Shown piece after piece: positions 1 through 13,439 of a DNA stretch of 13,439 bases. The notes under the pieces were generated by a model that was not told where the DNA came from, did not search any database, and saw nothing but the letters and a program-made list of their open reading frames with translations. How positions within the stretch are numbered: the stretch's first letter is position 1; every line of letters begins with the position of its first letter. This DNA is from a virus (taxonomy: Duplodnaviria > Heunggongvirae > Uroviricota > Caudoviricetes), in IMG/VR virus record IMGVR_UViG_3300029653_000151, positions 1-13,439 of that record; one strand, given 5' to 3'. The position numbers and the translations under genes are program-made.

Positions 1-342
1 ATGATGAAAAAAAGTATTCTGGCGTTTCTGTTACTCACCAGTTCTGCAGCTGCGCTGGCGGCACCGCAGGTGATTACCGTCAGCCGTTTTGAAGTGGGTA
101 AAGACAAATGGGCGTTTAATCGCGAAGAGGTGATGCTGACTTGCCGACCAGGTGATGCTTTGTATGTCATTAACCCAAGTACTCTCGTGCAGTATCCTTT
201 AAACGATATCGCACAAAAGGAAGTTGCCAGTGGGAAGACTAAAGCCCAACCCATTTCGGTGATTCAGATTGATGATCCTAACAATCCCGGCGAAAAAATG
301 AGTCTGGCACCGTTTATAGAGCGAGCTGAAAAACTCTGTTAA
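1..342 (+). CDS. yebY: Small secreted/periplasmic protein, 113 aa, with an N-terminal signal peptide ([22 protein letters not shown]); resembles the DUF2511 protein YebY
   Basis: Complete ORF from ATG at 1 to TAA at 340-342; hydrophobic signal-peptide-like N-terminus with an AxA cleavage motif; followed by a strong hairpin terminator. Name is from recalled similarity to E. coli YebY (113 aa), not a search. Confidence 0.6.
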
Positions 343-372
343 TTACCTAAAATAGCCTTTTGATTTCCAATA

Positions 373-412
373 AAAAACCGCCTCAGTTCTTTCACCAGAA
401 CGGGCGGTTTTT
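373..412. terminator. Bidirectional rho-independent terminator (interrupted stem ccgcc..gttct / agaac..ggcgg, with A-run upstream and T-run downstream)
   Basis: Inverted repeat ccgcctcagttct / agaacgggcgg at about 378-407, flanked by aaaaaa (373-377) and ttttt (408-412), so either strand reads a stem followed by a U-run. Sits 30 bp after the yebY stop. Confidence 0.65.
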
Positions 413-499
413 AACATTTAAGCTGATGACCACCACGCTTTTTATTGACCATTTTGCACGCAAACTGGAAAACCTGGCGTCGTCATCTATTCTTAAAGA

Positions 500-602
500 G
501 CAAGGCAACTAAGCCTGCATTAATGCCAACTTTTAGCGCACGGCTCTCTCCCAAGAGCCATTTCCCTGGACCGAATACAGGAATCGTATTCGGTCTTTTT
601 TT
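500..602 (+). ncRNA. sdsR: SdsR (RyeB)-like small RNA, about 103 nt, ending in an intrinsic terminator
   Basis: Sequence gcaaggcaactaagcctgcattaatgccaactttta...ccaagagcc...ggaccgaatacaggaatcgtattcggtcttttttt matches my recollection of enterobacterial SdsR; a sigma-S-type -10 (ctattct, 486-492) lies 7 nt upstream; a 10-bp perfect hairpin plus T8 run at 569-602 forms the 3' end. No protein-coding signal. Confidence 0.55.
569..602 (+). terminator. Rho-independent terminator (10-bp perfect stem gaccgaatac / gtattcggtc, 7-nt loop, T8 tail)
   Basis: Perfect inverted repeat 569-578 / 586-595 followed by ctttttttt (595-602). Confidence 0.8.
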
Positions 603-733
603 AATTGTATTTAAAATCAATCAGTTGCAAACGTCTTCCCGAAATTCCCCGAAATTTACTCGAATTTCTGTATTCCGGTCTTTTTTGGTTATATCACAAC
701 CAAAATACATTTAACAATCCATTTACGTTAAAA
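603..733. other. Candidate prophage attachment region (attL side), between the sRNA terminator and the integrase stop
   Basis: Integrase 3' end abuts this interval, as attP abuts int in lambda; it holds tandem cgaaatt-type direct repeats (about 640-668) and a partial copy of the SdsR terminator arm (gtattccggtctttttt, 663-679). The exact core cannot be set without the other prophage end. Confidence 0.3.
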
Positions 734-1810
734 TCAGAGTAGTAAGTACGTTTTTTCTCTCTCATCAAGATACATTTTTGTTGTCTTCTCCGATGTGTGG
801 CCAAGTAGACGCTGAGCAAATTCTTCTCCACATGTTTCTTTGTACAATCGTCCAGCCAGACTTCTGATCTCGTGAAAAGTTGGTGGGTTTTCACTGAACT
901 GGATACCTGTTAATTTTCTGGCTGCGACAAATTTTTTTGTCAGGCCATCCGGGTGAATGCTGCCGTCAGGGCTGTTTTTTCTAATCCCGGCACTGATTAG
1001 ATAATCTCCCCGGCTTACCAGGCGGCACTGTTCAACTACTGTACCAAGCCGTAGACCAGCGACAGGAAGGCTGAGTGACAGGGGGATAGCAATCATCATT
1101 CCTGTCTTAATTTGCCTGATGTGGAGACGATCATCATAAATATCACTAAAGCGCATATTCGTTATGTCTTCGCGACGTTGTCCTGTTACAAGGGCTAAAT
1201 CCATAGCTAATGGGAACCATGCCGGAAGTTGATCTGCTGCCTCCCTGATGCAGTTGTATGTCTTTAGTTTCAGTCGTTCTCTTGTAACTACTATTTTCGG
1301 TGCTCTTGTTGGCGTTACTGGATTTTGAGATATACGTCCATCAACAATGGCCTCACGAAACATATCAGACAACACAGAACGCATTGATCCTGCCATTGTG
1401 TTTTTCCCTCCTTCAATCCACAAATCAAGAAACTCGGCAATATGGCGAGTGGTTATTTCTGTCAGTAAAATTTCCCCCAATTTTTCTTTTATTGTCTCCA
1501 GTTGATTTACCCGAATTTTATAAGTATTTCTGGACACTTTTCTCCTTATAAGAATCGTTTTGTAACGTTCAATCCAGTCTGCCATAGTAAATGAGTCGAA
1601 CCCTTTAAGCTTTTCAATTAAGGCAGCAGGAGAGTAGTTTTTGTATATATAATGATTTGCTTCAATTGCCTGCGCTACTGCATCTCTTCTTGAAATTTTA
1701 CCTAGTGTAAATTCTTCTTTCGTCAGAGGGTTGCGCCAGTAATATGCTTTGTCCCTCCTTCGATATGTTAAGTTTTTAGGCAAATTGGGATCGTATTTTT
1801 TCCGCTGCAT
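734..1810 (-). CDS. int: Lambda-family tyrosine integrase (358 aa)
   Basis: Aligns by eye along its length with lambda Int (N-terminal arm-binding region PNLxYRxxxYYxxRxPxTxEEFxLG; C-terminal catalytic region with HxxR and a terminal tyrosine in TTKMYLDE). Start overlaps the excisionase 3' end by 35 nt. Confidence 0.9.
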
Positions 1811-2057
1811 GTTTTAACTTCTCCAGTAACGGACTGTCTCTCCCTTGTCGCCCATTAGGCTGATGGTGTGTTATATCGGTATCAACCTTATTTGGGTTGA
1901 TATAGAAAGCCTCCGGAACCACCCTGTAACTCCTCCCGTGTAGTTCAGGTGCAGGATAAATGTTTCCATTCCTTGCCCATCGTCTCAGCGTTGATATTGA
2001 TGGTGGGTTATCCGGATATCTGAGTTTTCCCCACGTTTTGAGTGTCACAAGATTCAT
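1776..2057 (-). CDS. xis: Excisionase (Xis-like), 93 aa
   Basis: N-terminus MNLVTLKTWGKLRYPDNPPSISTLRRWARNGNIYP resembles lambda Xis; sits directly upstream of and overlapping int. Start set at the second ATG (2057), which has AAGAGG 7 nt upstream; the ATG at 2063 is the alternative. Confidence 0.75.
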   Translation of the reverse strand: MNLVTLKTWGKLRYPDNPPSISTLRRWARNGNIYPAPELHGRSYRVVPEAFYINPNKVDTDITHHQPNGRQGRDSPLLEKLKHAAEKIRSQFA

Positions 2058-2163
2058 TGCCATACCTCTTACGATATGACCGCCAGTAAATATACAGAAT
2101 ACTGGCGGATGTGGTTGATTTTTAATAATCAGCTATGAAGTTCTAATTTGTATATAATGCAAC

Positions 2164-2352
2164 TCACGAGGACAGAAGTTTCTCGCAATTAAAATTTATC
2201 AGCTTTACTTTCTGCTCTCTGGAAACGCCTGCTTCTTTTTTTCCTGAGAGCATTTTTTCGCATTCTGATTTCGTTAATTTAGATTTTGAATATCTTGTCC
2301 AGTTAGTAGGAGTGCCACCTTCCTTTTCAATAGTGGCAGTAATTTTATACAT
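2164..2352 (-). CDS. Small hypothetical protein (62 aa) in the position of Rac ydaC/rcbA
   Basis: ORF with GGAGG 5 nt upstream of the ATG at 2352; occupies the slot between xis and ralR. Identity is by position only; alternative starts at 2364 and 2424. Confidence 0.45.
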   Translation of the reverse strand: MYKITATIEKEGGTPTNWTRYSKSKLTKSECEKMLSGKKEAGVSREQKVKLINFNCEKLLSS

Positions 2353-2539
2353 GAACACCTCCATTATTATTTCCAGTAGTTCGTTTATTCCATCTTTCGA
2401 GTGCTTCTTTTTCACTTCCACCATAGCCAGTTCGGGATTCGCATCCGTTGCATTTTGCCCGGTAATATCCTGAAATTGCTTTCACCGTAACAGATGGACA
2501 ACCACAAAACGGACATGGTTTAACATCGTCATATCTCAT
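2345..2539 (-). CDS. ralR: RalR/Lar restriction-alleviation protein (64 aa), zinc-ribbon (CPFCG..CNGC); reported toxin of the RalR/RalA type I toxin-antitoxin pair
   Basis: MRYDDVKPCPFCGCPSVTVKAISGYYRAKCNGCESRTGYGGSEKEALERWNKRTTGNNNGGVHV matches my recollection of K-12 RalR, including its 64-aa length. In-frame upstream ATGs at 2551 and 2578 are alternatives. Confidence 0.8.
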   Translation of the reverse strand: MRYDDVKPCPFCGCPSVTVKAISGYYRAKCNGCESRTGYGGSEKEALERWNKRTTGNNNGGVHV

Positions 2540-2595
2540 AATTTTTGTCATAAAAACTGTCTCACGTTGGCGGTGCATTACACCGCCAGGCTGAA

Positions 2596-3405
2596 TTATT
2601 CTTCTGAATTATCGATTACACTGTATTCCCCGGTTAATACAGAGGAGTCTGCCGGATCGATTGTCAGTGGTTCCTTTTCATCCATTGATACTGCACGCTG
2701 GATTTCAATTGAGACAGGCAGGTATTTAAACAGGCGACGAATAGCCGTTTTTTTTGCCATTTCTTCCCAGTGAGTTACCCATGGCCCGTTATTACCAGCC
2801 TTACTCTGGCTGCGCACCAGTTCAATCTGTTTGCGCGTCATAACTTCAAACTGAGTCCCTCCGTCTTTCAGTCTTGCGACAGCATAGACGTGGGTCACTG
2901 GTGCATCTTCGTTTTCTCCCGGGCGGTGTATTAACTTTTCATCAAGGCCAAATTCAAAACTAAACTCGTCACCTTCACGGACAACACGGGCTGACAGGCT
3001 GGCGATTTGACCAGAACGGCGAGCCAGATCAATCATGCCGCGATAACCAATGATTAGCTGAACGTTCTTTTTACCGCTCTTTTCGTTTTTATTACCAAAA
3101 GGCAGTAAATATGCGTGGCCGAGGGCGCTACCTGGCTCAAGGCCGAGCTGTGAACACTGAACGATCGCACTGACAAAACTCATGGTGTCACAGTTTCCTA
3201 GCGCCGGAACCTTACGAATTTCTGTGGTGGCGATACGTATCATTCGTTCAGCCGTCATATGGCGTGGGAGAGCTGCTGCCAGTTGCTCTTTCATTGATGG
3301 CTGATTAATAAAGCTGATCACGTCGTTATTTTTTACTGCTGCTGGTGCACGGTTTCCCTGGGTTTTTTGCAGATCGGCTTTTGCGATAGGTGGTTGCTTA
3401 GTCAT
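2596..3405 (-). CDS. recT: RecT single-strand annealing recombinase (269 aa)
   Basis: [36 protein letters not shown]... matches recalled Rac RecT throughout; start chosen at the MTKQ ATG (3405), which overlaps the recE 3' end. Confidence 0.92.
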
Positions 3406-6074
3406 TTGCATACTCCTTAGCCCAGCGGGGCAGTGATAACGTTTTAATAGCTGGCCATTCATCGGTATTCAGGCAGTCAGCCAGGGTCCTCAGATTGCGG
3501 TGATATTCCTGCTGGCCTGCCAGTTTTGCTTCTTCGCCCATCATGAAAATCTCAACCGGGTAACGTCCGCATTCAACAGTTGTGCTGGCAACCAGAAAAA
3601 CGAAAGTTGGCAGCACACCAAACTGTGCTTCATAACCGTCACTGTAGAATGCATCCTGAACGTGATAGCGGTAGTCGTAATAAGCCGTTTTGAATCGTTG
3701 AATATCCGCTGTGGTTTTCACGTCCATGATCCAGTGAAATTCAGGGATAATTTTGTCCGGACGGCACCGACACAAAATTCCTGTTTCAGGATCTTCCCAG
3801 TAAATTGATGATTCAGCGTGTCCGGCGCTTTCAACAAGCCATTGACCCAGCGGCAAAGCCATAACGCTCTGATACATGAGTTCAATTTTCCGGCCTTCTT
3901 CGGCAGTGATAACCGTTTTTCCTGTGCTTGCGCATTCCATCAGAAACGCTTTCTCCTCTTCTTTTCCGGCGGTTGTACGGCGGTTAAATTCAGGTGCCAC
4001 GATAAAGCGGTTACTGAATTCTTCCGGTTCAAGTACACGGCAGTGGAAAGCGGTTCCTAAATCGAGCGTTTTTGTCTTTGTGGTGTCCACTGGGGGCATT
4101 TTTACGCCACAAATACAGAGCCGGAGTATCAGCAATGTCGTCGAGCTGAGACTTACTGACACCGGGACCCGCGTGGTAATTCTCATTCGAAATTCCGTAA
4201 TAAATACCAGGCTCTATGTCTCCTGCGATTACGGGATCTGCGACTTCGCCAGTTTCATCACTGCAATCGCGATGCGGATCGCTGCCAGCATTCTCATTGT
4301 GCGGATGTTCAGGGCCTTCCATTTCCTCCGGATCTTTTTCCTGAGATTCATCCAGATTTTCTTCATTAAAGGTTTCCTGATATGTGGTGTCGCCCATCAC
4401 CGCGCCACAATCAGGGCAGTTGCCGCCACCGCTCTGACCGCGGGCGGCACAGACTTTTTCCGGTTCCTGTTGCGCTACTGGTTCAGATTGTTTCGTTTCT
4501 GGCTCATTTTTCTGTGCATTTTGGCTGTTTTGTTCCGCTTTCTGGTTGTTTTGTTCCGATTTGGGCTGGTTCTGGTTCACAGAATCTCGGGTTTCAATTC
4601 CCTTAACCCATTTCGGATCATTCGGGTCGCTAATCCCTTCAACAAATTCTCCGCGAGAGGCAGCCAGTAATTTGTCTGCATCGACAGGATTTTTGGGCGG
4701 AATGTTTTTCCGGGCTTCATAGAGTTCTGCCCGCAGTTTCTGATATTTCGCATCAACAGAATTTACCTGTGACTGAGCATCCAGCGGCTGCGTGTCCTGA
4801 TGATGTTCAGTTGCATCCGGTTCCACTGTTTCAGCCGTTGCCTGTTCATCTGCCATTGCGCAAGATGGTTGCAGTTTTTCTTCATCATCCTGTTTTTCTT
4901 CTTCTGTTACACGCTGCGGCATCGGGGCAGAGGAACGACCGCAGGCAATATCCACGATTTCTGGATCAGGGTTGGCATGATCAGTTTCAGTCAGTACTTT
5001 GTTAAGATATTCAGTGACGTGTGCGGGGATAACCTCGATCCCAATTGGTGCTTCTTTTACGGACGCAACCACGATGGCGCGGGAATAATCCAGCCCGCCA
5101 GGCATGGTGATGAATTTGTCGCGGAAAACAGAAAAGGGCGGTTTATTTTCAGCGATAATTTCCTCGACACGTTTAGCGTGTGCCGGATGAAGGTTATAAA
5201 TGTCCACGTCCATTGAACGAGCCAGTACGCCAGTGGCTACGTCGCGCGCCAGTGACGTCAGATCGTGAATGAAACCTTCGCCGCGATCGGTGAGGTTCCC
5301 GCCGCCAGCATTAGCGCCGGAAGCCGTGCGCGTGATGCGTGAAACACGATTTCCTTTCATCCACTCTTTTGTCAGCAGACCGCGATCGGTGTAGTCTGCG
5401 TCCAGGTATGCTTCGAAAAAAGCAGTCATCAGCCCCAGGCTTGAATTGCCTGGATTAGGGAAAACTCTGTCAGTATCACGCACCAGTTTGTGGAGATCGC
5501 GAATTTCCAGCGGGTCGAGCAGGCTGGTTTTGTGGGAAACAGCCAGGGCAGTAACGGCTGGTAGTTCTTCAGCTCGTGCAATGTGTAATGCCTGTAGTTC
5601 GTTGCGTGAAACGTGCGTTACCGGTTTTTCGCTGCCGTGTTGAGCAAGCCAGCGAATGGGCAGCTCCTGACCGGAAATCGGGAGTAGCATATTCTCCTCA
5701 ATCTCCGTCATGTCTTCGCCATTAACATTGGTATTGTCAGTGCTGGCTGGCTTGTCCTGCGCAGAGGATGAGGGCGCGATAAATACCATTGTGATGCCAT
5801 CTTCCCCGCCTTTTTCGTAACGGTTGCAGAATTCCGTATCAAATACGCCTTCTGGTGGAAGGTCATCAACAACGGGCAAATTGACGCGAACAGGTTTTTT
5901 AAAGTCATCTTCATCGTAGCCAGCATCGTCAATCGCAACAGCACCACGGGAGATGGCAATGGATAATTTTTTCGCTTCAGCCCAGTAGAAACCGCCTTTA
6001 ATACCGAGACGTTTTCTTACTTTGTCATTTTTTGCTTCGTAATACAGTGGGTAAACTTGTTTATCGGTGCTCAT
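3398..6074 (-). pseudogene. recE: recE (exonuclease VIII) split by a frameshift into a 681-aa N-terminal ORF (4029-6074) and a C-terminal nuclease-domain ORF (3398-4186)
   Basis: Two minus-strand ORFs in different frames overlap by 158 bp and together read as one RecE. The upstream frame reaches ...[10 protein letters not shown] then runs into nonsense and a stop; the downstream frame continues [19 protein letters not shown]... through the PD-(D/E)xK motif (RPDK...IMDVKT) to ...WAKEYAND. The switch sits at a G5 run (plus 4092-4096). Confidence 0.75.
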
Positions 6075-6143
6075 TGCTTTTTAACCTCAACTCAGATTAA
6101 AATTAATGCGAGTGATGAATAAATGTCCCAGGTTCTTCACTCA

Positions 6144-6174
6144 GGCCTGCACAGTGTGCAGGCTTTCTTTTTTT
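6144..6174 (+). terminator. Plus-strand-oriented intrinsic terminator-like hairpin (gcctgcac agt gtgcaggc, then tttcttttttt)
   Basis: 8-bp perfect stem 6145-6152 / 6156-6163 followed by an 11-nt T-rich run on the plus strand only; no plus-strand gene lies upstream. Confidence 0.5.
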
Positions 6175-6180
6175 CAGATT

Positions 6181-6450
6181 TCACCTTTTAATTTCATTGC
6201 AATCAGAGTTGCCAGAAATTCGGCTTTTTTTTTCTGCGGGCAGATTCTTTCCTATGTGCACCAGACACATTTTTTTAACACCATCGTTAAGTGTTTTAAC
6301 GTTGCCTGATGGACCGTCGATATCAACCACAGTGAATGGGGTTTCTTTATTTTCTGTCTTAATCACGTAGCCAATACGCTTTCCTTCCAGGGTAACTTCG
6401 TGAACAATGTCATCAGTAGTAACAACAGTGGCTTCATAACTGGTAATCAT
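6181..6450 (-). CDS. racC: RacC-like protein (89 aa)
   Basis: MITSYEATVVTTDDIVHEVTLEGKRIGYVIKTENKETPFTVVDIDGPSGNVKTLNDGVKKMCLVHIGKNLPAEKK... matches recalled Rac RacC; AAGGAG 6 nt upstream of the ATG at 6450. Confidence 0.75.
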   Translation of the reverse strand: MITSYEATVVTTDDIVHEVTLEGKRIGYVIKTENKETPFTVVDIDGPSGNVKTLNDGVKKMCLVHIGKNLPAEKKSRISGNSDCNEIKR

Positions 6451-6524
6451 GTTTTTCTCCTTAATTAAGGTTGAGCGAATCCCTGCCATTGCTGGCATAA
6501 ATTCAGTTTCGGATAGTCAGTTAA

Positions 6525-6695
6525 TTAAAGTTCGTGTGCCATCTGGTCTTTTTCGGCACAGATTTCACTACAATATTTTTTCATTTCCGTCGTTGGTATA
6601 ACTCCACGCATGAAATGAAGTGGTCTTGTAATGATTTTGCTTTCTTCAATTTCTTTATTGCAAAGGTGATAAGCACATTTTATTTTCTTAGTCAT
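6525..6695 (-). CDS. ydaE: YdaE-like small cysteine-rich protein (56 aa), below the size cut-off of the supplied ORF track
   Basis: Hand-translated minus strand: [56 protein letters not shown], stop TAA at 6525-6527. Its ATG overlaps the kilR stop (TAATG), indicating translational coupling. Confidence 0.7.
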   Translation of the reverse strand: MTKKIKCAYHLCNKEIEESKIITRPLHFMRGVIPTTEMKKYCSEICAEKDQMAHEL

Positions 6696-6916
6696 TACCA
6701 TGACTCCGCCTTTACAGGTAAACCATCACGACCGAGGAAGACTTTAATCATGCAGTCAGAAATGCATGTTTTTGTAGTCAGGCTACGAATATAAAGTTTT
6801 CGCTTTTTAATATTGTTTGCCGAGGCGATATATGTCCGACCTTCATGAAGAACATAATCGCCAGGGGTCACACACTGACGTGGTATTTCATCAGTTCCGA
6901 AGTGATGAGCAATCAT
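6695..6916 (-). CDS. kilR: KilR cell-division inhibitor (73 aa)
   Basis: [73 protein letters not shown] matches recalled Rac KilR; GGAG 6 nt upstream of the ATG at 6916. Confidence 0.8.
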
Positions 6917-7324
6917 AATTATCTCCATTTTTACAAATGAATTTTGTCGATGCGGTGCCTGGTGCCTCCAGGTGACGTTAACCAGTTAACAATTAACGCC
7001 GGATAATCCACCCATAACACTGATGCTTTTAACTGTGCCGCGTGCGCTTAGCCGCATTCACTGCATCACAAAATTCACTTTAAAAAGGGGCGGCAGGGCA
7101 GCCACGGAGTAGAACTGATGCCGCCAAAGACTACACATAGCAATGTCGTTATTTACAACCGGAGGCGCACTCCCACCATTTAAATTTAACAGACAAGAAC
7201 GACTCTTTATGGATATCGGAAATGCGCCTTCGTGTTGTGCCCGGTTTTATTTCACCACCTCCGGGCTTTGGTGGTTTCTGCTATACCCCTACAGCGAGAA
7301 TATTGAATTAATCCAAATAATGGA

Positions 7325-7477
7325 TTAGCAAGTATTTCTGGCAAGCCAGCGACGTGCGCCAGCTTCGGTTTTAAACGTTTTGCTTTTGGTATACGTCATG
7401 GCGGTGAATGTGCCGTCCTGATTGGGAAACACGCCACATACCAGAGATTCGTTGTTGCCAAGATCGATAGTATCCAT
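7325..7477 (-). CDS. Small Rac-type protein (50 aa), YdaG/YdaF-like
   Basis: MDTIDLGNNESLVCGVFPNQDGTFTAMTYTKSKTFKTEAGARRWLARNTC; GAGG 5 nt upstream of the ATG at 7477; first ORF downstream of the PL-like promoter. I cannot say from memory whether it is ydaF or ydaG. Confidence 0.5.
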   Translation of the reverse strand: MDTIDLGNNESLVCGVFPNQDGTFTAMTYTKSKTFKTEAGARRWLARNTC

Positions 7478-7659
7478 GTTGACCTCATTTCCCCTTAACG
7501 CCGGGTGGCGGAACGTTTTATCTACTGCGCTTTGTATCAATCAACAACTGCCGTCATGTTCGTATGCCTCAGGCTGGCTACTTAGCCCTGTTCAGTGGCT
7601 GGATAACTCGAGGTATTGTCCTGCCGTTCTCTGGTGGGGCGTTGTTTGGATATGCTTAT

Positions 7660-7710
7660 TAAACACAATACGTTTTCTTGTGTCAACACGGAATGTGTTT
7701 TGTGGTGGGT
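7660..7710 (-). promoter_or_regulatory. PL-like leftward early promoter with overlapping operator-like palindromes
   Basis: On the minus strand: -35 TTGACA (plus 7691-7696), 17-nt spacer, -10 TTTAAT (plus 7668-7673). Overlapped by inverted repeats acacaa-N9-ttgtgt (7673-7696) and aacac-N5-gtgtt (7695-7709) that resemble the palindrome between racR and ydaS. Confidence 0.5.
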
Positions 7711-7736
7711 GTCATATGATGATGGTACAAAAAAGC

Positions 7737-7759
7737 CCGCTGATAGCGGGCTGATTGGC
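7737..7759 (-). terminator. Rho-independent terminator downstream of racR
   Basis: Minus strand reads GCCCGC-tatca-GCGGGC followed by TTTTTT (plus: aaaaaa 7737-7742, gcccgc 7743-7748, tgata, gcgggc 7754-7759), 24 bp after the racR stop. Confidence 0.75.
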
Positions 7760-7782
7760 ATATTACTGTGATAGCAAGATCA

Positions 7783-8202
7783 TTACTCCGGTGGGGGATT
7801 ATCTTTAAGCCTGCCTCTCAAATATTTTTCTACATACTCATCGATTTCTTTTAGCCGGACTTCAAATAGCTCAATCATTCGTTGTTGTTCTGAGCCCGGT
7901 AGCTGGTTAAACAACTCAAGAAGTTTTCGTTGGGATTCATTTAACCACAATTCAGAAGATTCCTGTTCTCCAAAGAGGAGCTCAGGAGGAGATATGCCAA
8001 GTGCCTTTCCCAATATGACAGCGTCATGCACTCCAACATTTCTGCTGCCCGCCTCATAGTTACCTATACGCGATTGCGTCCATCCGCAGATTTCAGCAAG
8101 TTTTCCTTGAGATAAACCAAGCTTCTGCCTGCGCTCTTTAAGACGCATTGCAATTTTGTCATTGAGCCTACTAGCGGCAATTTTTTCGTTTTCTTTTTCC
8201 AT
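7783..8202 (-). CDS. racR: RacR-like XRE/cI-family prophage repressor (139 aa)
   Basis: N-terminal helix-turn-helix (LSQGKLAEICGWTQSRIGNYEAG); divergent from the cro-like ydaS across an operator-bearing intergenic region. Shorter than the 158 aa I recall for K-12 RacR, so allelic identity is uncertain. Confidence 0.7.
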   Translation of the reverse strand: MEKENEKIAASRLNDKIAMRLKERRQKLGLSQGKLAEICGWTQSRIGNYEAGSRNVGVHDAVILGKALGISPPELLFGEQESSELWLNESQRKLLELFNQLPGSEQQRMIELFEVRLKEIDEYVEKYLRGRLKDNPPPE

Positions 8203-8298
8203 TGCATCCTTGTATCACGAATCGTGATTTACATAAAACACAAAATAGCTTGACCATATAACACAAGGTGTGTTTAAAATTGTCATCGGAGGTTTTCA
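8203..8298. promoter_or_regulatory. Divergent promoter/operator region between racR and ydaS
   Basis: Perfect 15-bp palindrome atcacga-a-tcgtgat (8214-8228); second palindrome aacaca-agg-tgtgtt (8260-8274); -35-like TTGACC (8250-8255) and AT-rich -10-like taaaat (8275-8280); GGAGG 6 nt before the ydaS ATG. Confidence 0.6.
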
Positions 8299-8541
8299 AT
8301 GAACAAAATTTCAACATATCGAAAACAGCTTGGGCTGTCTCAAAGACAACTTGCTGTTCAGTTAGGGTGGATACAAAGCCGACTGGCAAATTACGAAGCA
8401 AATTTTCGTACCCCTGGACTAGAGGAGTGCAGAAAAATTGTTTCTACCCTTAATCGGCTTGGCGCTCATTGTGGACTTGACGATGTATTCCCCCCAGACG
8501 GTAAGCATAGCGAAAACAGCATAGGAGCGGTTGATTCATGA
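8299..8541 (+). CDS. ydaS: Cro-like helix-turn-helix protein (80 aa), YdaS-like
   Basis: HTH segment LGLSQRQLAVQLGWIQSRLANYEA; divergent from the repressor; stop overlaps the ydaT start (ATGA). Confidence 0.7.
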   Translation: MNKISTYRKQLGLSQRQLAVQLGWIQSRLANYEANFRTPGLEECRKIVSTLNRLGAHCGLDDVFPPDGKHSENSIGAVDS

Positions 8542-8963
8542 AAATCAGGCATAAGCACATCGAATCAGTGTTGTTAGCCCTGGCAGCCGAAAAAGGGCAG
8601 GCGTGGGTCGCTAACGCAATTACTGAAGAATATCTGCGCCAGGGGGGGGGCGGCGAATTGCCCCTTATACCAGGCAAGGACTGGAACAATCAGCAGAATA
8701 TCTATCACCGTTGGTTGAAAGGTGAAACGAAAGCGCAAAGGGAAAAAATTCAGAAACTGATCCCTGCGGTTCTGGCAATTCTTCCGCGCGAGCTGCGTCA
8801 CCGACTCTGCATCTTCGATACCCTGGAACGCCGTGCATTACTGGCGGCGCAGGAAGCGTTGAGTACGGCAATTGATGCGCATGATGATGCAGTCCAGGCC
8901 GTTTACCGGAAAGCACATTTCAGCGGTGGTGGGTCGCCCGGCGATTCTGTCGTAGTGCATTGA
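8538..8963 (+). CDS. ydaT: YdaT-like protein (141 aa)
   Basis: Position directly after ydaS with ATGA overlap; length matches the roughly 140 aa I recall for K-12 YdaT. Contains a G9 homopolymer (8642-8650) encoding Gly-Gly-Gly-Gly. Confidence 0.65.
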   Translation: MKIRHKHIESVLLALAAEKGQAWVANAITEEYLRQGGGGELPLIPGKDWNNQQNIYHRWLKGETKAQREKIQKLIPAVLAILPRELRHRLCIFDTLERRALLAAQEALSTAIDAHDDAVQAVYRKAHFSGGGSPGDSVVVH

Positions 8964-9007
8964 TTGAAATTAATCGTGCCGGATTGTTTTGTTCGGTATC
9001 AGTTAAA

Positions 9008-9426
9008 TGTAACGACGCGAGCGTTACAAGGTGAAAACAAATGGCTTCAAACTGGATAAAGCTCGAGGTTATTACGCCGGATAAGCCGGAAATATTCAGG
9101 CTTGCTGAGATTCTGAATATTGATCCAGATGCCGCATTAGGGAAGGTTATTCGCTTCTGGGCATGGGCGGATCAACAAATGATAGACGGTAATGCAGATT
9201 GTAACGCTCGCGGCGTTACAAAAAGTGCAATAGATCGCATCACTTTTATGGCTGGTTTTGCTGATGCGTTAATTCAGGTTGGATGGCTGGTCGAAAATGA
9301 CGTTGGGCTTTCTCTACCTAACTTTGAACGTCATAACGGAAAAAGCTCAAAAAAACGGGCGGTTACAAACGAGCGAGTTACAAAAATACGCGAACTGAAA
9401 CGAAAGGGTAACGCTGCCAGCGTTAC
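9008..9426. repeat. Cluster of gtaacg-N7-cgttac palindromes and gttaca half-sites: candidate origin iterons or regulator binding sites
   Basis: tgtaacg-acgcgag-cgttaca (9008-9028, upstream of the ydaU ATG); ttgtaacg-ctcgcgg-cgttacaa (9199-9221); direct half-sites gttacaaacgagcgagttaca (9362-9382); gtaacg-ctgccag-cgttac (9408-9426). Sites 1 and 2 are the same 21-mer in opposite orientation with one mismatch. Confidence 0.5.
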
Positions 9427-9829
9427 ACAAACGGATCAAAAAGCGTTACCAGAGGAAGAGGAAGAGGAAGATATAAATACTGATCTCCCCCTAAATCCCC
9501 CTCGCCAAAAACGAGCGTCTAAAAAATTCGAGCCGGAGGCTATCGAGCTGCCTGACTGGTTGCCGGAAACACTCTGGCATGAGTGGGTTCAGTTCAGGCA
9601 GGCATTGCGAAAACCGATTCGAACGGAGCAGGGCGCTAACGGGGCGATACGGGAACTGGAAAAATTCCGTCAGCAGGGTTTTACACCTGAGCAGGTGATT
9701 CGACACAGCATCGCCAATGAATACCAGGGCTTGTTCGCACCGAAAGGTGTTCGGCCTGAGACGTTGCTCCGACAGGTTAACACCGTCTCGTTGCCGGACA
9801 GTGCGATCCCGCCAGGCTTCAGGGGGTAA
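9041..9829 (+). CDS. ydaU: Phage replication initiation protein, lambda O-like / YdaU-like (262 aa)
   Basis: Sits directly upstream of a DnaC-like loader as in O-P type modules; carries internal palindromic repeats and an acidic EEEEEED stretch. Confidence 0.65.
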   Translation: MASNWIKLEVITPDKPEIFRLAEILNIDPDAALGKVIRFWAWADQQMIDGNADCNARGVTKSAIDRITFMAGFADALIQVGWLVENDVGLSLPNFERHNGKSSKKRAVTNERVTKIRELKRKGNAASVTQTDQKALPEEEEEEDINTDLPLNPPRQKRASKKFEPEAIELPDWLPETLWHEWVQFRQALRKPIRTEQGANGAIRELEKFRQQGFTPEQVIRHSIANEYQGLFAPKGVRPETLLRQVNTVSLPDSAIPPGFRG

Positions 9830-9835
9830 CAGACC

Positions 9836-10582
9836 ATGAAAAATATTGCGACAGGCGGCGTTCTGGAGCGTATCCGCAGACTGACCCCACCACATGTAAC
9901 CGCCCCATTCAGAACGGTTGCGGAGTGGCGTGAGTGGCAACTTGCTGAAGGCCAGAAACGTTGCGAGGAGATCAACCGCCTGAATCGTCAGTTGCGGGTG
10001 GAAAAAATTCTGAATCGCTCTGGCATCCAGCCGTTGCACCGTAAATGCTCGTTTGCGAATTACCAGGTGCAGAACGACGGCCAGCGATACGCGTTAAGTC
10101 AGGCGAAATCCATCACCGATGAACTGATGACCGGGTGTACAAATTTTGCGTTCAGCGGAAAACCTGGTACCGGGAAGAATCACTTAGCGGCAGCTATCGG
10201 GAATCGCCTGCTGAAAGACGGTCAGACAGTGATTGTGGTTACCGTGGCTGATGTTATGAGCGCCCTGCACGCCAGCTATGACGACGGGCAGTCAGGCGAA
10301 AAATTTTTGCGGGAGCTGTGCGAAGTGGATCTGCTGGTTCTTGATGAAATTGGCATTCAGCGCGAGACAAAAAACGAGCAGGTGGTGCTGCACCAGATTG
10401 TTGATCGCCGGACAGCGTCGATGCGCAGCGTGGGGATGCTGACAAACCTGAACTATGAGGCCATGAAAACATTGCTCGGCGAGAGGATTATGGATCGCAT
10501 GACCATGAACGGCGGGCGATGGGTGAATTTTAACTGGGAGAGCTGGCGTCCGAATGTCGTCCAGCCAGGAATTGCGAAGTGA
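9836..10582 (+). CDS. ydaV: DnaC/IstB-like AAA+ helicase loader (248 aa), YdaV-like
   Basis: Walker [16 protein letters not shown] and Walker B LLVLDEIG; 248 aa matches the length I recall for K-12 YdaV. Confidence 0.85.
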
Positions 10583-10604
10583 TTTTTACCTGGAGGAAAT
10601 TTTA

Positions 10605-11366
10605 ATGGAGACTGTTTTTGACGCACTGAAAGCAATGGGAAAAGCCACGTCGGTAGAACTGGCTGCGCGACTTGATATCAGTCGTGAAGAGGTACTGAAC
10701 GAGCTGTGGGAACTGAAAAAGGCTGGTTTCGTTGATAAAAGCGTATACACCTGGCGTGTGGCTGATAACAACGTTCAGCAGGAACAGCCAGCGCCAGAAG
10801 AACAGCCGGAAGAAACCACCACGGCGACAGTAGCGAAAATCTCAGAGTGCGATTTAACCGCAACGATTGAACAACGCGGACCACAAACGGCGGATGAACT
10901 GGCTACGTTTTTCGGCATCACATCACGCAAAGTGGCTTCAACGCTGGCAATGGCAATCAGCAAAGGGCGTCTGATTCGCGTGAATCAGGGCGGTAAATTT
11001 CGTTACTGCATACCGGGTGCTGATTTACCGGCAGAGCCGGAAGCTGCATCCGTAGCGGAAACCGATGGTAAAGCCTTTCCTCAGCCAGCAGGTGTTGCGT
11101 TACCAGTACAGGAAATGATGGCACAGGAAGAAATGAAAACAGAAATCGTGGAAGACATTGTGAGGTTACAGCCATCGATCACCGAAATGAAAGCAGATGA
11201 CCTGATTCTACCATCGCTGCATGTGGCTAACCGCGAGCTGCGCCGGGCGAAAAGTGATGTCCAGAAGTGGGAGCGAGTCTGTGCTGCGCTGCGGGAGCTG
11301 AACAAGCACCGGGATATTGTTCGACAGATTACTGATTCTTCCCGCCGTGTTGTATCGGAAAAGTGA
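10605..11366 (+). CDS. Hypothetical phage protein (253 aa) with two winged-helix-like segments, an acidic linker and a C-terminal coiled-coil-like tail
   Basis: GGAGG 7 nt upstream of the ATG at 10605; segments [30 protein letters not shown] and [32 protein letters not shown] look like winged-helix DNA-binding units. Possibly the intact counterpart of ydaW; not verified. Confidence 0.55.
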
Positions 11367-11381
11367 TTGCCGGAGGCGCTT

Positions 11382-11774
11382 ATGGCAAAAGTATTTACAC
11401 CAGAAGAGCGGGAAGAAGTGAAGGCGCGCATTGTGGAATTCGTGCGCCTGAGCGGACGAGAAACTTTTCGACAACTGGCAGATAAAACGGGTGTCAGTAA
11501 GACCGCTATTCGTCGTTTATCTGGTGCGCTTGCGGCCAGTGGTGATGTCTGGCTCTCTGGTTGCGGGGTATTTCCATCAGAGCAGGCGTATCGCGTATGG
11601 CGTAAGACACCGGAGAAGGCTGCTGACCCGACACTGATTCGAAAGTTACCTGACGGAGAAATACGTCGTTACAACAGACGGCAGAACATAATTTGTCGTG
11701 AGTGCCGCCAGAGCGAAGTTATGCAGCGTGTGCTGGCGTTCTATCGGGGAAACTTTCAGGAGGTGATGGAGTGA
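11382..11774 (+). CDS. Hypothetical phage protein (130 aa) with a possible HTH and a CxxC pair
   Basis: GGAGG 5 nt upstream of the ATG at 11382; stop overlaps the next gene's GTG start. Confidence 0.55.
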   Translation: MAKVFTPEEREEVKARIVEFVRLSGRETFRQLADKTGVSKTAIRRLSGALAASGDVWLSGCGVFPSEQAYRVWRKTPEKAADPTLIRKLPDGEIRRYNRRQNIICRECRQSEVMQRVLAFYRGNFQEVME

Positions 11775-12067
11775 GGGTCAGAGTTTATATTGCCGGTCCA
11801 ATGACGGGATATGAAAATTTCAACCGTGAGGCGTTTCACAAGGCGGAAGAGGAACTGAAACGGGAAGGGCATACCGTCTTAAACCCGGCAGTACTTCCGG
11901 ACGGGCTGACACAGCCGCACTACATGGATATTTGCATGGCAATGATTCGTTGTGTGGATGCGATTTACATGCTGAATGGCTGGCAGCGGTCAGCGGGCGC
12001 TAAGGCAGAGCTGGCACTGGCGGAGAAACTGGGGCATGCAGTGATTTATCAGGAGGTGGCTCAATGA
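11771..12067 (+). CDS. DUF4406-like protein (nucleoside 2-deoxyribosyltransferase-like fold), about 98 aa
   Basis: Motif VYIAGPMTGYENFNREAFHKAEEELKREGHTVLNPAVL is typical of the DUF4406 / deoxyribosyltransferase-like family as I recall it. GTG start at 11771 with GGAGG 7 nt upstream; the ATG at 11801 is the alternative. Stop overlaps the next start (ATGA). Confidence 0.55.
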   Translation: MRVRVYIAGPMTGYENFNREAFHKAEEELKREGHTVLNPAVLPDGLTQPHYMDICMAMIRCVDAIYMLNGWQRSAGAKAELALAEKLGHAVIYQEVAQ

Positions 12068-12525
12068 GAGAGGTTAACTATGAGGCGCTTCGTGAGGCAG
12101 CACAAAACTATCAGTCGACGCTGGCGTGGTATCAGGCTATCCCGGACAGCCCAAATGCTGAACGGGATTGTGATGCGGCTCTTGCTGCGTTTAAGCGTCA
12201 CATCCGTCATCGGGAAGCGGATATTATCGCTGATTTGCTGGATGGACTGGAAGAAGCAAAATCACAACTCAAAGAGCAGCGTGAGTATTACGAAGGCGTT
12301 ATCTCTGATGGGAGCAAGCGTATTGCTGAACTGGAAGCGCGGGAAGTTCAATTACCGACTCGCTACGACCTTCGATATGGACACCCGATAAATGCAGATG
12401 AGCGACATGTCATGATACCTAAAGAAAATGGCAGTTGGCTTTACCTGATTGACCTAGAACACGCATTACGCGTCTCTGGCATTCGCATCAAAGGAGAGGA
12501 GCATGGAAATAAAACCAGAGGATGA
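12064..12525 (+). CDS. Hypothetical phage protein (153 aa) with a central coiled-coil-like region
   Basis: ORF translationally coupled to its upstream neighbour (ATGA); no recognisable motif. Confidence 0.5.
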   Translation: MREVNYEALREAAQNYQSTLAWYQAIPDSPNAERDCDAALAAFKRHIRHREADIIADLLDGLEEAKSQLKEQREYYEGVISDGSKRIAELEAREVQLPTRYDLRYGHPINADERHVMIPKENGSWLYLIDLEHALRVSGIRIKGEEHGNKTRG

Positions 12526-12859
12526 GTTAAGCAATATCGTTTTATTTCCGGTAAAAGAGGATGACCCTCGTAATCAGGTTAATTTTCTTTATGAGCCATC
12601 GGAAAGACCATATTGTCATCACGCCTCTGTCCGGGTTGACGAAAAAGAGCGTCAGGTCCGCTGTAAAATCTGCGGTGCAGTTGTGGAGCCATTTGACTGG
12701 ATGCTCTCTGTGGCGAAAAGAGAAACCAGACTGGCAGATGATGTAAGGCACTTGCGCCAGGAGGAGCGGGAAAGGCGAAAAAATATAGAAAAGCTAATTC
12801 AGATTGAGCGTAACGCGAAAGCGCGGATACGCAGGGCGACAAAATCCAGAACTGAATAA
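12503..12859 (+). CDS. Hypothetical phage protein (118 aa) with a zinc-ribbon-like C..HH..CxxC segment and a basic coiled-coil tail
   Basis: GGAGAGGAG directly upstream of the ATG at 12503; CHHASVRVDEKERQVRCKICG motif; overlaps the 3' end of the preceding ORF. Confidence 0.5.
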   Translation: MEIKPEDELSNIVLFPVKEDDPRNQVNFLYEPSERPYCHHASVRVDEKERQVRCKICGAVVEPFDWMLSVAKRETRLADDVRHLRQEERERRKNIEKLIQIERNAKARIRRATKSRTE

Positions 12860-12982
12860 TTAAATTTAGCTCTGTTAAAAATTTAATCCTTAACCGGAGG
12901 GATTTCTGCACCCTCAGAACATCAGGAGGCCGTCCGAAAGGGCGGTAGTGAAATGCGAAAATTCAAAATAATTATTGAAACG

Positions 12983-13439
12983 TAGACTGGCCCCCTGAAT
13001 CTCCAGACAACCAATATCACTTATTTAAGTGATAGTCTTAATACTAGTTTTTAGACTAGTCATTGGAGAACAGATGATTGATGTCTTAGGGCCGGAGAAA
13101 CGCAGACGGCGTACCACACAGGAAAAGATCGCAATTGTTCAGCAGAGCTTTGAACCGGGGATGACGGTCTCCCTCGTTGCCCGGCAACATGGTGTAGCAG
13201 CCAGCCAGTTATTTCTCTGGCGTAAGCAATACCAGGAAGGAAGTCTTACTGCTGTCGCCGCCGGAGAACAGGTTGTTCCTGCCTCTGAACTTGCTGCCGC
13301 CATGAAGCAGATTAAAGAACTCCAGCGCCTGCTCGGCAAGAAAACGATGGAAAATGAACTCCTCAAAGAAGCCGTTGAATATGGACGGGCAAAAAAGTGG
13401 ATAGCGCACGCGCCCTTATTGCCCGGGGATGGGGAGTAA
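12983..13439 (+). mobile_element. IS2 (IS3 family) insertion sequence, partial: terminal inverted repeat, leader and orfA; the rest lies beyond the window
   Basis: Starts with tagactggccccctgaatctccagacaaccaatatcac..., which I recognise as an IS2 terminus; followed by the InsC ORF. IS2 is about 1.3 kb, so it runs past the window end. Confidence 0.85.
13074..13439 (+). CDS. insC: IS2 OrfA (InsC) transposase DNA-binding subunit, 121 aa
   Basis: [58 protein letters not shown]... matches recalled IS2 InsC; stop TAA at 13437-13439. The frameshift-fused OrfAB would continue beyond the window. Confidence 0.85.

Follow-up and report, generated by a model that had tools for sequence, protein, structure and literature searches.

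A Rho-independent terminator between racC and recE of Rac-like prophages and the short antisense RNA that it probably ends

Introduction

The locus considered here raises a simple question, of what transcript is ended by a strong terminator-like hairpin that points against the genes around it. The hairpin is found directly upstream of the recE start in a viral sequence (Caudoviricetes; IMG/VR record IMGVR_UViG_3300029653_000151, positions 1 to 13,439; this whole stretch of 13,439 nt is referred to below as the window), in an operon that is read leftward, from the minus strand. The first-pass annotation of this DNA, made from the letters and the open reading frames (ORFs) alone, proposed that the hairpin ended an unannotated transcript antisense to the 5' region of recE, and that such an RNA, or the structure itself, could contribute to the silence of wild-type Rac recE. 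Here we ask whether the terminator is genuine, what RNA would end at it, and whether this RNA is a plausible regulator of recE.

The Prophage and Its Gene Context

As to the identity of the DNA, the window is not the Rac prophage of Escherichia coli K-12 itself but a Rac-like prophage carried by other strains of the species, situated beside yebY and ryeA/ryeB. Over positions 5900-6600, identity is 100% with a prophage of E. coli CEA601S and 99.6% with one of O55:H7 CB9615, the prophage being inserted after yebY and adjoining the ryeA/ryeB small-RNA locus. The gene order (int, xis, ralR, recT, recE, racC, ydaE, kilR) is that of Rac. The match to the CEA601S prophage stops at 12983-13439, marking a mosaic boundary on the side of the replication and late genes. 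The earlier statement that no plus-strand gene lies upstream of the hairpin holds, as the PGAP annotation of the CEA601S prophage has minus-strand genes only, from int to the DUF1391 gene; the plus-strand ORFs that the ORF list places inside recE are short and mechanical.

Both recE and the racC-like gene are frameshifted in the window copy. An extra G at 4092, compared with the near-identical CEA601S prophage, splits recE into ORFs 4029-6074 and 3398-4186, and recE in the window strain is probably a pseudogene. In the racC-like gene a run of ten T at 6224-6233 (A10 on the coding strand, versus A8 in K-12) puts the last ~17 codons out of frame, so that the stop codon falls either at 6174-6176 or, in the shifted frame of this copy, at 6181-6183.

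Several other structured elements are recognized in the window. The SraC/RyeA (minus strand) and SdsR/RyeB (plus strand) pair occupies 462-606, directly beside the integrase gene (734-1810, minus strand), and a strong plus-strand hairpin at 568-596 is the SdsR terminator. Upstream of kilR there are a DicF-family RNA (7088-7139, minus strand; 60.9 bits, above the Rfam gathering score) and an STnc100-like stretch (6909-7098, minus strand); the place equivalent to that of the DicF-family RNA is occupied in K-12 Rac by kilS, with a sub-threshold DicF match of 39 bits (8411-8466 of locus L002). A further terminator-like hairpin, also very strong, with the sequence AGCCCGCT-ATC-AGCGGGCT and then TTTTT, is found at 7734-7752 on the minus strand; it coincides with a weak Trp-leader match (7727-7813, minus strand) and may be an early-left terminator or an attenuator.

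A One-Directional Terminator in the racC-recE Spacer

In the window sequence the spacer from the racC-like stop codon to the recE start measures 100 nt, and it contains a hairpin on the plus strand (Table 1), whose stem begins at a distance of 69 nt from the recE ATG and whose T-run touches the racC stop codon, sharing its last T (6174) with that codon on the opposite strand. The stem-loop (6143-6165) has 10 pairs, six of them G-C, around a 3-nt loop, and ranks first among the terminator-like sites that the terminator scan identifies in the window. The hairpin with its core (gcctgcac/gtgcaggc), the T-run, the plus-strand orientation and the proximity to the recE start had all been pointed out in the first-pass annotation, and the sequence and the scan bear them out. 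Read from the minus strand, the stem leads into CTGAGTGAAG, with no T-run, and the element is thus terminator-like on the plus strand only, in keeping with a leftward transcription that has to proceed into recE.

Weak terminator-like sites are in no excess in the window, with 13 observed versus 15.6 +/- 4.8 in shuffled sequences. Under strict requirements (8 or more pairs, 5 or more of them G-C, and 6 or more T in 8 positions), only 6% of 100 sequences simulated from the window by a first-order Markov model had any site, on either strand, with a mean of 0.1 per sequence. This rarity, together with the top rank in the scan, places the hairpin far beyond chance.

Table 1. Features of the racC-recE spacer region, and the RalA locus, in the window.
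Feature	Position	Strand	Basis and remarks
Candidate sigma-70 promoter (TTGCTT 6074-6079, 18-nt spacer, TAAAAT 6098-6103)	6074-6103	+	Predicted; in the invariant block
recE start codon; Shine-Dalgarno GAGG	6074-6072; 6088-6085	-	ORF list, PGAP, sequence; within the invariant block
Predicted antisense small RNA, about 63-66 nt	6110-6174	+	Predicted 5' end; 3' end by homology with K-12
5' hairpin GAGTGAtGAA / TTCtTCACTC, 13-nt loop	6110-6142	+	Fold of the predicted RNA
Terminator stem-loop	arms 6143-6152 (AGGCCTGCAC) and 6156-6165 (GTGCAGGCTT); loop AGT 6153-6155	+	Terminator scan, fold, comparison
U-tract TTTCTTTTTTT	6164-6174	+	Window sequence; directly 3' of the stem
racC-like gene, convergent with the predicted RNA	6174-6450	-	PGAP (frameshifted pseudogene in CEA601S)
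RalA antitoxin small RNA (Rfam RF02694)	2168-2346	+	Rfam search

A Transcript Ends at the Orthologous Hairpin in K-12

The Rac prophage of K-12 has a hairpin at the orthologous place, ATAGCCTGCG-CCATA-CGCAGGCTAT followed by TTCTTTC, the stem differing from that of the window by compensatory changes (A-U to G-C and A-U to U-A). A published Term-seq data set (Adams et al., 2021; PMC7815308, supplementary file 1) includes a curated plus-strand 3' end at MG1655 position 1417486. The T at this position belongs to the T-run behind the orthologous hairpin and is the seventh nucleotide past the G-C core of the stem. Two of its entries give average reads of 185,664 (first sheet, LB at OD 0.4) and 146,140 (further down), and among the 49 plus-strand entries in the first part of the table a tRNA alone exceeds it, SokC being given 66,698 reads and SgrS 6,222 (PMC7815308). 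The gene name of the site occurs three times in the three-sheet file, and the site is classed solely as 'antisense racC', with no discussion in the accompanying text (PMC7815308). The spacer sequence is present in one copy in the one MG1655 record among the matches listed, and cross-mapping of reads is therefore unlikely. A repeated element, also considered for this locus, is ruled out, the sequence being single-copy in K-12 among the matches listed.

With the stem-loop and the U-tract found in the window, and an in vivo 3' end found at the K-12 ortholog, we conclude that the hairpin with its T-run is a genuine Rho-independent terminator of the plus strand. Mapping of plus-strand 3' ends, which the first-pass annotation had named as the check on its proposal, thus gives a positive result at the orthologous site in K-12 (1417486), and for the window by homology only. 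We regard a plus-strand RNA with its 3' end at the hairpin as real in K-12; by the same homology, the corresponding RNA of the window allele would be expected to end at about 6170-6174.

The Candidate Promoter and the Predicted RNA

As to the other end of this transcript, the combination TTGCTT-18-TAAAAT (Table 1) is the sole plus-strand site of its quality between 5900 and 6150, promoter-like sites of that quality occurring about once per kb per strand. Its -35 element is poor (3 of 6 consensus positions) and its spacer is 18 nt long; it is not listed by a stricter consensus scan, K-12 has TTGTTT at the position of TTGCTT, and the list of Kim et al. (2012) contains no start site at the spacer locus. 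From this candidate, the RNA would most likely start about 7 nt after TAAAAT, at G6110 or A6111 (about 1417423 in K-12). Such a start would produce an RNA of 63-66 nt, with the first nucleotide opening a 5' hairpin in both of the alleles discussed below.

The candidate promoter overlaps the recE start codon and Shine-Dalgarno sequence on the other strand. The block that contains it is nearly invariant between alleles and could be conserved for recE translation alone; as the same block carries the recE Shine-Dalgarno sequence and start codon, its conservation is not proof of a promoter. In the leftward mRNA, 6075-6109 (minus strand) has a weak, G.U-rich fold that includes the recE Shine-Dalgarno sequence, GAGG being paired with UUUU.

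The predicted RNA has a marked tendency to fold, with a minimum free energy of -26.8 kcal/mol (z -4.5) for 6110-6175 of the window. In the K-12 allele an equivalent 5' hairpin is built on a different sequence (z -4.9), and both alleles have the same shape, a 5' hairpin with the terminator hairpin adjacent to it, despite only 50% identity in the body. In both of these diverged alleles, the 5' hairpin opens exactly at the predicted start, and stem substitutions in the 5' hairpin of relatives result in G.U pairs on the plus strand.

Judged by its reading frames, the predicted spacer RNA is non-coding. No conserved plus-strand ORF was found, the window allele having no stop codon before the terminator and K-12 having an unrelated ORF of 9 codons. 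A coding function was also considered for the 67-codon plus-strand ORF at 6106-6309 and rejected, as this ORF runs through the terminator and is absent in K-12. Likewise, the minus-strand spacer contains no ORF for a toxin of which the RNA might be a type I antitoxin, and the RNA stops at the racC stop codon.

Searches of Rfam 15 gave no match at E-values up to 1, either for positions 6075-6180 of the window or for the K-12 spacer, and the same searches did find RalA, DicF, SraC and SdsR elsewhere. The RNA has no annotation in the RefSeq record of K-12, which lists ralA and kilS nearby. No racC entry is present in the supplementary tables, as far as they were accessible, of a paper on small-RNA prediction from Hfq RIL-seq (PMC8175672), and racC and recE are likewise without mention in the available files of a survey of size-selected small RNAs (Shinhara, 2011). 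Full-text searches of the literature by name terms, by hairpin sequence and by coordinate found no paper describing an RNA from the racC-recE spacer.

Of the readings that we have weighed, the likely one, in our judgement, is that of a cis-antisense small RNA of about 65 nt, abundant and convergent with the leftward racC-recE operon. Its predicted gene is antisense to the interval between racC and recE, two genes that share the response of the other leftward Rac genes to the silencing of racR.

Two Alleles around an Invariant Block

The spacer exists in two alleles. The K-12 type is present in 1597 and the window type in 282 of the same 5426 complete E. coli genomes, and no third allele was found, either in some 150 loci on viral contigs or in the collection of E. 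coli genomes. Beyond Escherichia and Shigella, RacC relatives were limited to two MAG contigs identical to E. coli and one weak, unrelated match. Along the locus, identity between the window and K-12 amounts to 58% for the first 180 nt of recE, 31 of 32 positions for the block from the recE ATG to TAAAAT, 50% for the next ~40 nt (the RNA body), 68% for the terminator stem-loop, with pairing kept, and 92% for racC. A block of 32 nt is thus almost invariant between flanks of 50-58% identity, and the divergence of the alleles begins directly after the -10 element. The first ~60 codons of recE come in two very different versions, at 58% identity (loci L164/L165 versus the window and L002). The N-terminal alleles of recE and the spacer alleles recombine independently of each other, which makes the invariant block an island, or a recombination joint, between two swappable segments.

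The terminator, in turn, is conserved in structure. Across 27 distinct relatives, 97% of the cells of the terminator helix are paired, and three of its ten pairs are changed on both sides, these compensatory changes mostly reflecting a single split between two clades; the pair counts refer to the terminator helix only, as the 5' hairpin is misaligned between alleles by MAFFT. The stem is kept throughout under a series of loops (AGT, ACT, GTT, GTC, ACA, TGA and CCATA versus TATGG), and the T-rich plus-strand tail is kept in every variant, in differing sequences (TTTCTTTTTTT, ATTTCTTTC, CTTTTTCCC). Some of the loops are exact inversions of one another (CCATA versus TATGG; AGT versus ACT), for example in loci L012 and L029, and such inversions are a signature of hairpin-templated loop inversion.

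As to the strand on which selection may act, seven single substitutions are found in stems. Five of them lead to G.U pairs on the plus-strand RNA (C.A on the minus strand), one, at a loop-closing pair, does the reverse, and one breaks pairing on both strands; the asymmetry of 5 versus 1 is not significant by our own binomial estimate (one-sided p about 0.11). In one variant clade the plus strand folds at -22.7 kcal/mol, versus down to -13.3 kcal/mol for the minus strand. This pattern of substitutions, coming from few events, is suggestive of selection on the plus-strand RNA.

Possible Action on recE

The proposal of an antisense transcript stands in part: a plus-strand 3' end is found at the hairpin in K-12, but the overlap with the 5' end of recE does not survive, given the start predicted here, with which the RNA covers the racC-recE spacer only and does not reach the recE coding sequence or its Shine-Dalgarno sequence. 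The terminator would then end a short, abundant, non-coding RNA whose gene fills the spacer and opposes the leftward early operon. The RNA so predicted would be perfectly complementary to the racC-recE mRNA spacer, over a stretch bounded by the racC stop codon and by a point ~21 nt before the recE Shine-Dalgarno sequence, and, by virtue of this perfect complementarity, would pair with that mRNA. Pairing would probably begin by loop-loop contacts and proceed to a duplex of ~60 bp immediately ahead of the recE ribosome-binding site. Cleavage by RNase III or an uncoupling of recE from racC would then be expected, and either would lower recE from leaky or induced leftward transcripts. Our hypothesis, by analogy with the OOP RNA of lambda and the sar RNA of P22, is that the spacer RNA lowers recE expression.

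As to the silence of recE, the main silencer is RacR. Knock-down of racR by CRISPRi derepresses racC, recE, recT and ralR (bioRxiv 10.64898/2026.09.06.749655), and as these genes are derepressed together, repression by RacR explains the silence of recE. Another connection between the two genes that flank the spacer is that, for retron-Sen2, racC and recE are reported to form a pair of blocker and trigger (bioRxiv 10.1101/2020.06.22.160242). A more elaborate idea is of a two-allele specificity cassette, with promoter and terminator conserved and the body swapped, which might set the RacC:RecE ratio during induction, or by which a resident prophage might silence recE only in an incoming phage of the same allele; we would call it distinctly improbable.

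Alternative Explanations

One alternative dispenses with a dedicated small-RNA gene, the terminator serving to insulate racC, ydaE and kilR from long antisense transcripts begun in recE or recT. It would agree with the missing start site in Kim et al. (2012), with the weakness of the candidate promoter by consensus, with the fact that Term-seq reports 3' ends only, and with the absence of the RNA from small-RNA catalogues, as far as their accessible parts go. However, the reads at 1417486 in the cited portion of the Term-seq table are very high, above those of SokC and SgrS, which is unusual for pervasive antisense RNA, and the invariant block holds the sole promoter-like site at the right distance. 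The coincidence of the 5' hairpin with the predicted start in both alleles also argues for a defined gene, and, with the first 180 nt of recE at 58% identity, a promoter inside recE would not be common to the two alleles. We therefore consider insulation alone unlikely.

Another alternative is that the RNA acts mainly in trans, on mRNAs of the host or of other prophages, in the manner of DicF and possibly via ProQ or Hfq, its antisense position being incidental. Consistent with this are the abundance of the RNA in a lysogen whose leftward operon is under repression and the long U tail of the window allele, which is of the type bound by Hfq. Small RNAs that are encoded by prophages and act on host targets are also known, a DicF homolog being present in the same window. 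The tail of the K-12 RNA, in contrast, is a short AUUUCU and hardly any part of this RNA is single-stranded, racC is missing from the accessible Hfq RIL-seq prediction tables (PMC8175672), and the 50% identity of the body between alleles is an ill fit with a conserved trans seed. Within the window, the sole other complementarity is a 10-mer inside recE, which by our own estimate is at chance level. A primary role in trans appears to us quite unlikely.

A third alternative places the function of the hairpin in the leftward mRNA, where it would stabilise the 3' side of a processed racC message, be a site of RNase action or weakly terminate leftward transcription, with the plus-strand T-run a by-product. 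The hairpin does follow the racC stop codon at a distance of 8 nt, and in K-12 the complementary strand folds equally well (-25.3 versus -24.7 kcal/mol), but the minus-strand stem has no T-run, the mapped 3' end is on the plus strand, the T-rich tail on the plus strand persists in all variants despite sequence differences, and the stem substitutions favour the plus strand, one clade losing about 8 kcal/mol on the minus strand only. We find this alternative very hard to sustain, and a leftward terminator in particular is ruled out, there being no U-tract on the minus strand. Finally, the arms form an almost perfect DNA palindrome, but there is next to no chance of its being a fortuitous inverted repeat or a protein-binding site at the DNA level, with no role in RNA, as such hairpins are rare in simulations, an in vivo 3' end maps to this one, G.T substitutions in relatives break the DNA symmetry and keep the RNA pairing, and the loop varies freely over a fixed stem.

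Significance and Comparison with Known Systems

If the reading of a cis-antisense small RNA is true, then an abundant, unnamed small RNA is expressed from K-12 and from about one in three complete E. coli genomes; its gene has a fixed candidate promoter and a fixed terminator and a body that comes in two very different versions. This RNA would be located directly before recE, the exonuclease gene of the RecET recombination system, and between the reported blocker and trigger genes of a retron, and could offer a handle on the tuning of leaky or induced recET expression. The -10 element of the candidate promoter is in untranslated sequence and can be mutated, which makes it a concrete and cheap handle.

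As to the terminator itself, generic Rho-independent terminators share with it a G+C-rich stem, a short loop and a U-tract, with the 3' end within the U-tract (seen here at the ortholog). Compared with a generic terminator between convergent units, the spacer hairpin is one-directional, the other strand having no U-tract.

As to the RNA, several known systems resemble the one predicted here. One example is OOP of phage lambda, a 77-nt antisense RNA transcribed from pO and complementary to the 3' end of cII, whose action is RNase III-dependent cleavage of the cII mRNA. In common with OOP, the spacer RNA would be a short RNA of a lambdoid phage, with its own constitutive promoter (a candidate one here) and a strong intrinsic terminator, directed against an early operon, extending over the end of a gene and the spacer next to it, and present in the lysogen. 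The two differ in location, OOP belonging to the rightward cII-O region and the spacer RNA to the leftward recombination region, where the overlap would be purely intercistronic, and there is neither sequence similarity between them nor an Rfam match.

Another example is sar of phage P22, an antisense RNA of 68-69 nt that arises from within the arc-ant intercistronic region and represses translation of ant. In this case, too, the RNA is of similar size, originates from an intercistronic spacer and is convergent with its operon, the downstream cistron being the presumed target here. However, sar covers the ribosome-binding site of ant, whereas about 21 nt would separate the spacer RNA from the recE Shine-Dalgarno sequence, and direct occlusion is thus not expected.

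A third example is RalA, which is encoded in the same window. It is, likewise, a plus-strand RNA convergent with a Rac-type leftward operon and ending where a gene on the minus strand has its 3' end, but it is 179 nt long and is paired with the toxin gene ralR, whereas the spacer has no toxin ORF and no sequence relation to RalA. Overall, the spacer RNA would represent an unnamed example of a well-known class, the prophage cis-antisense small RNAs with an intrinsic terminator.
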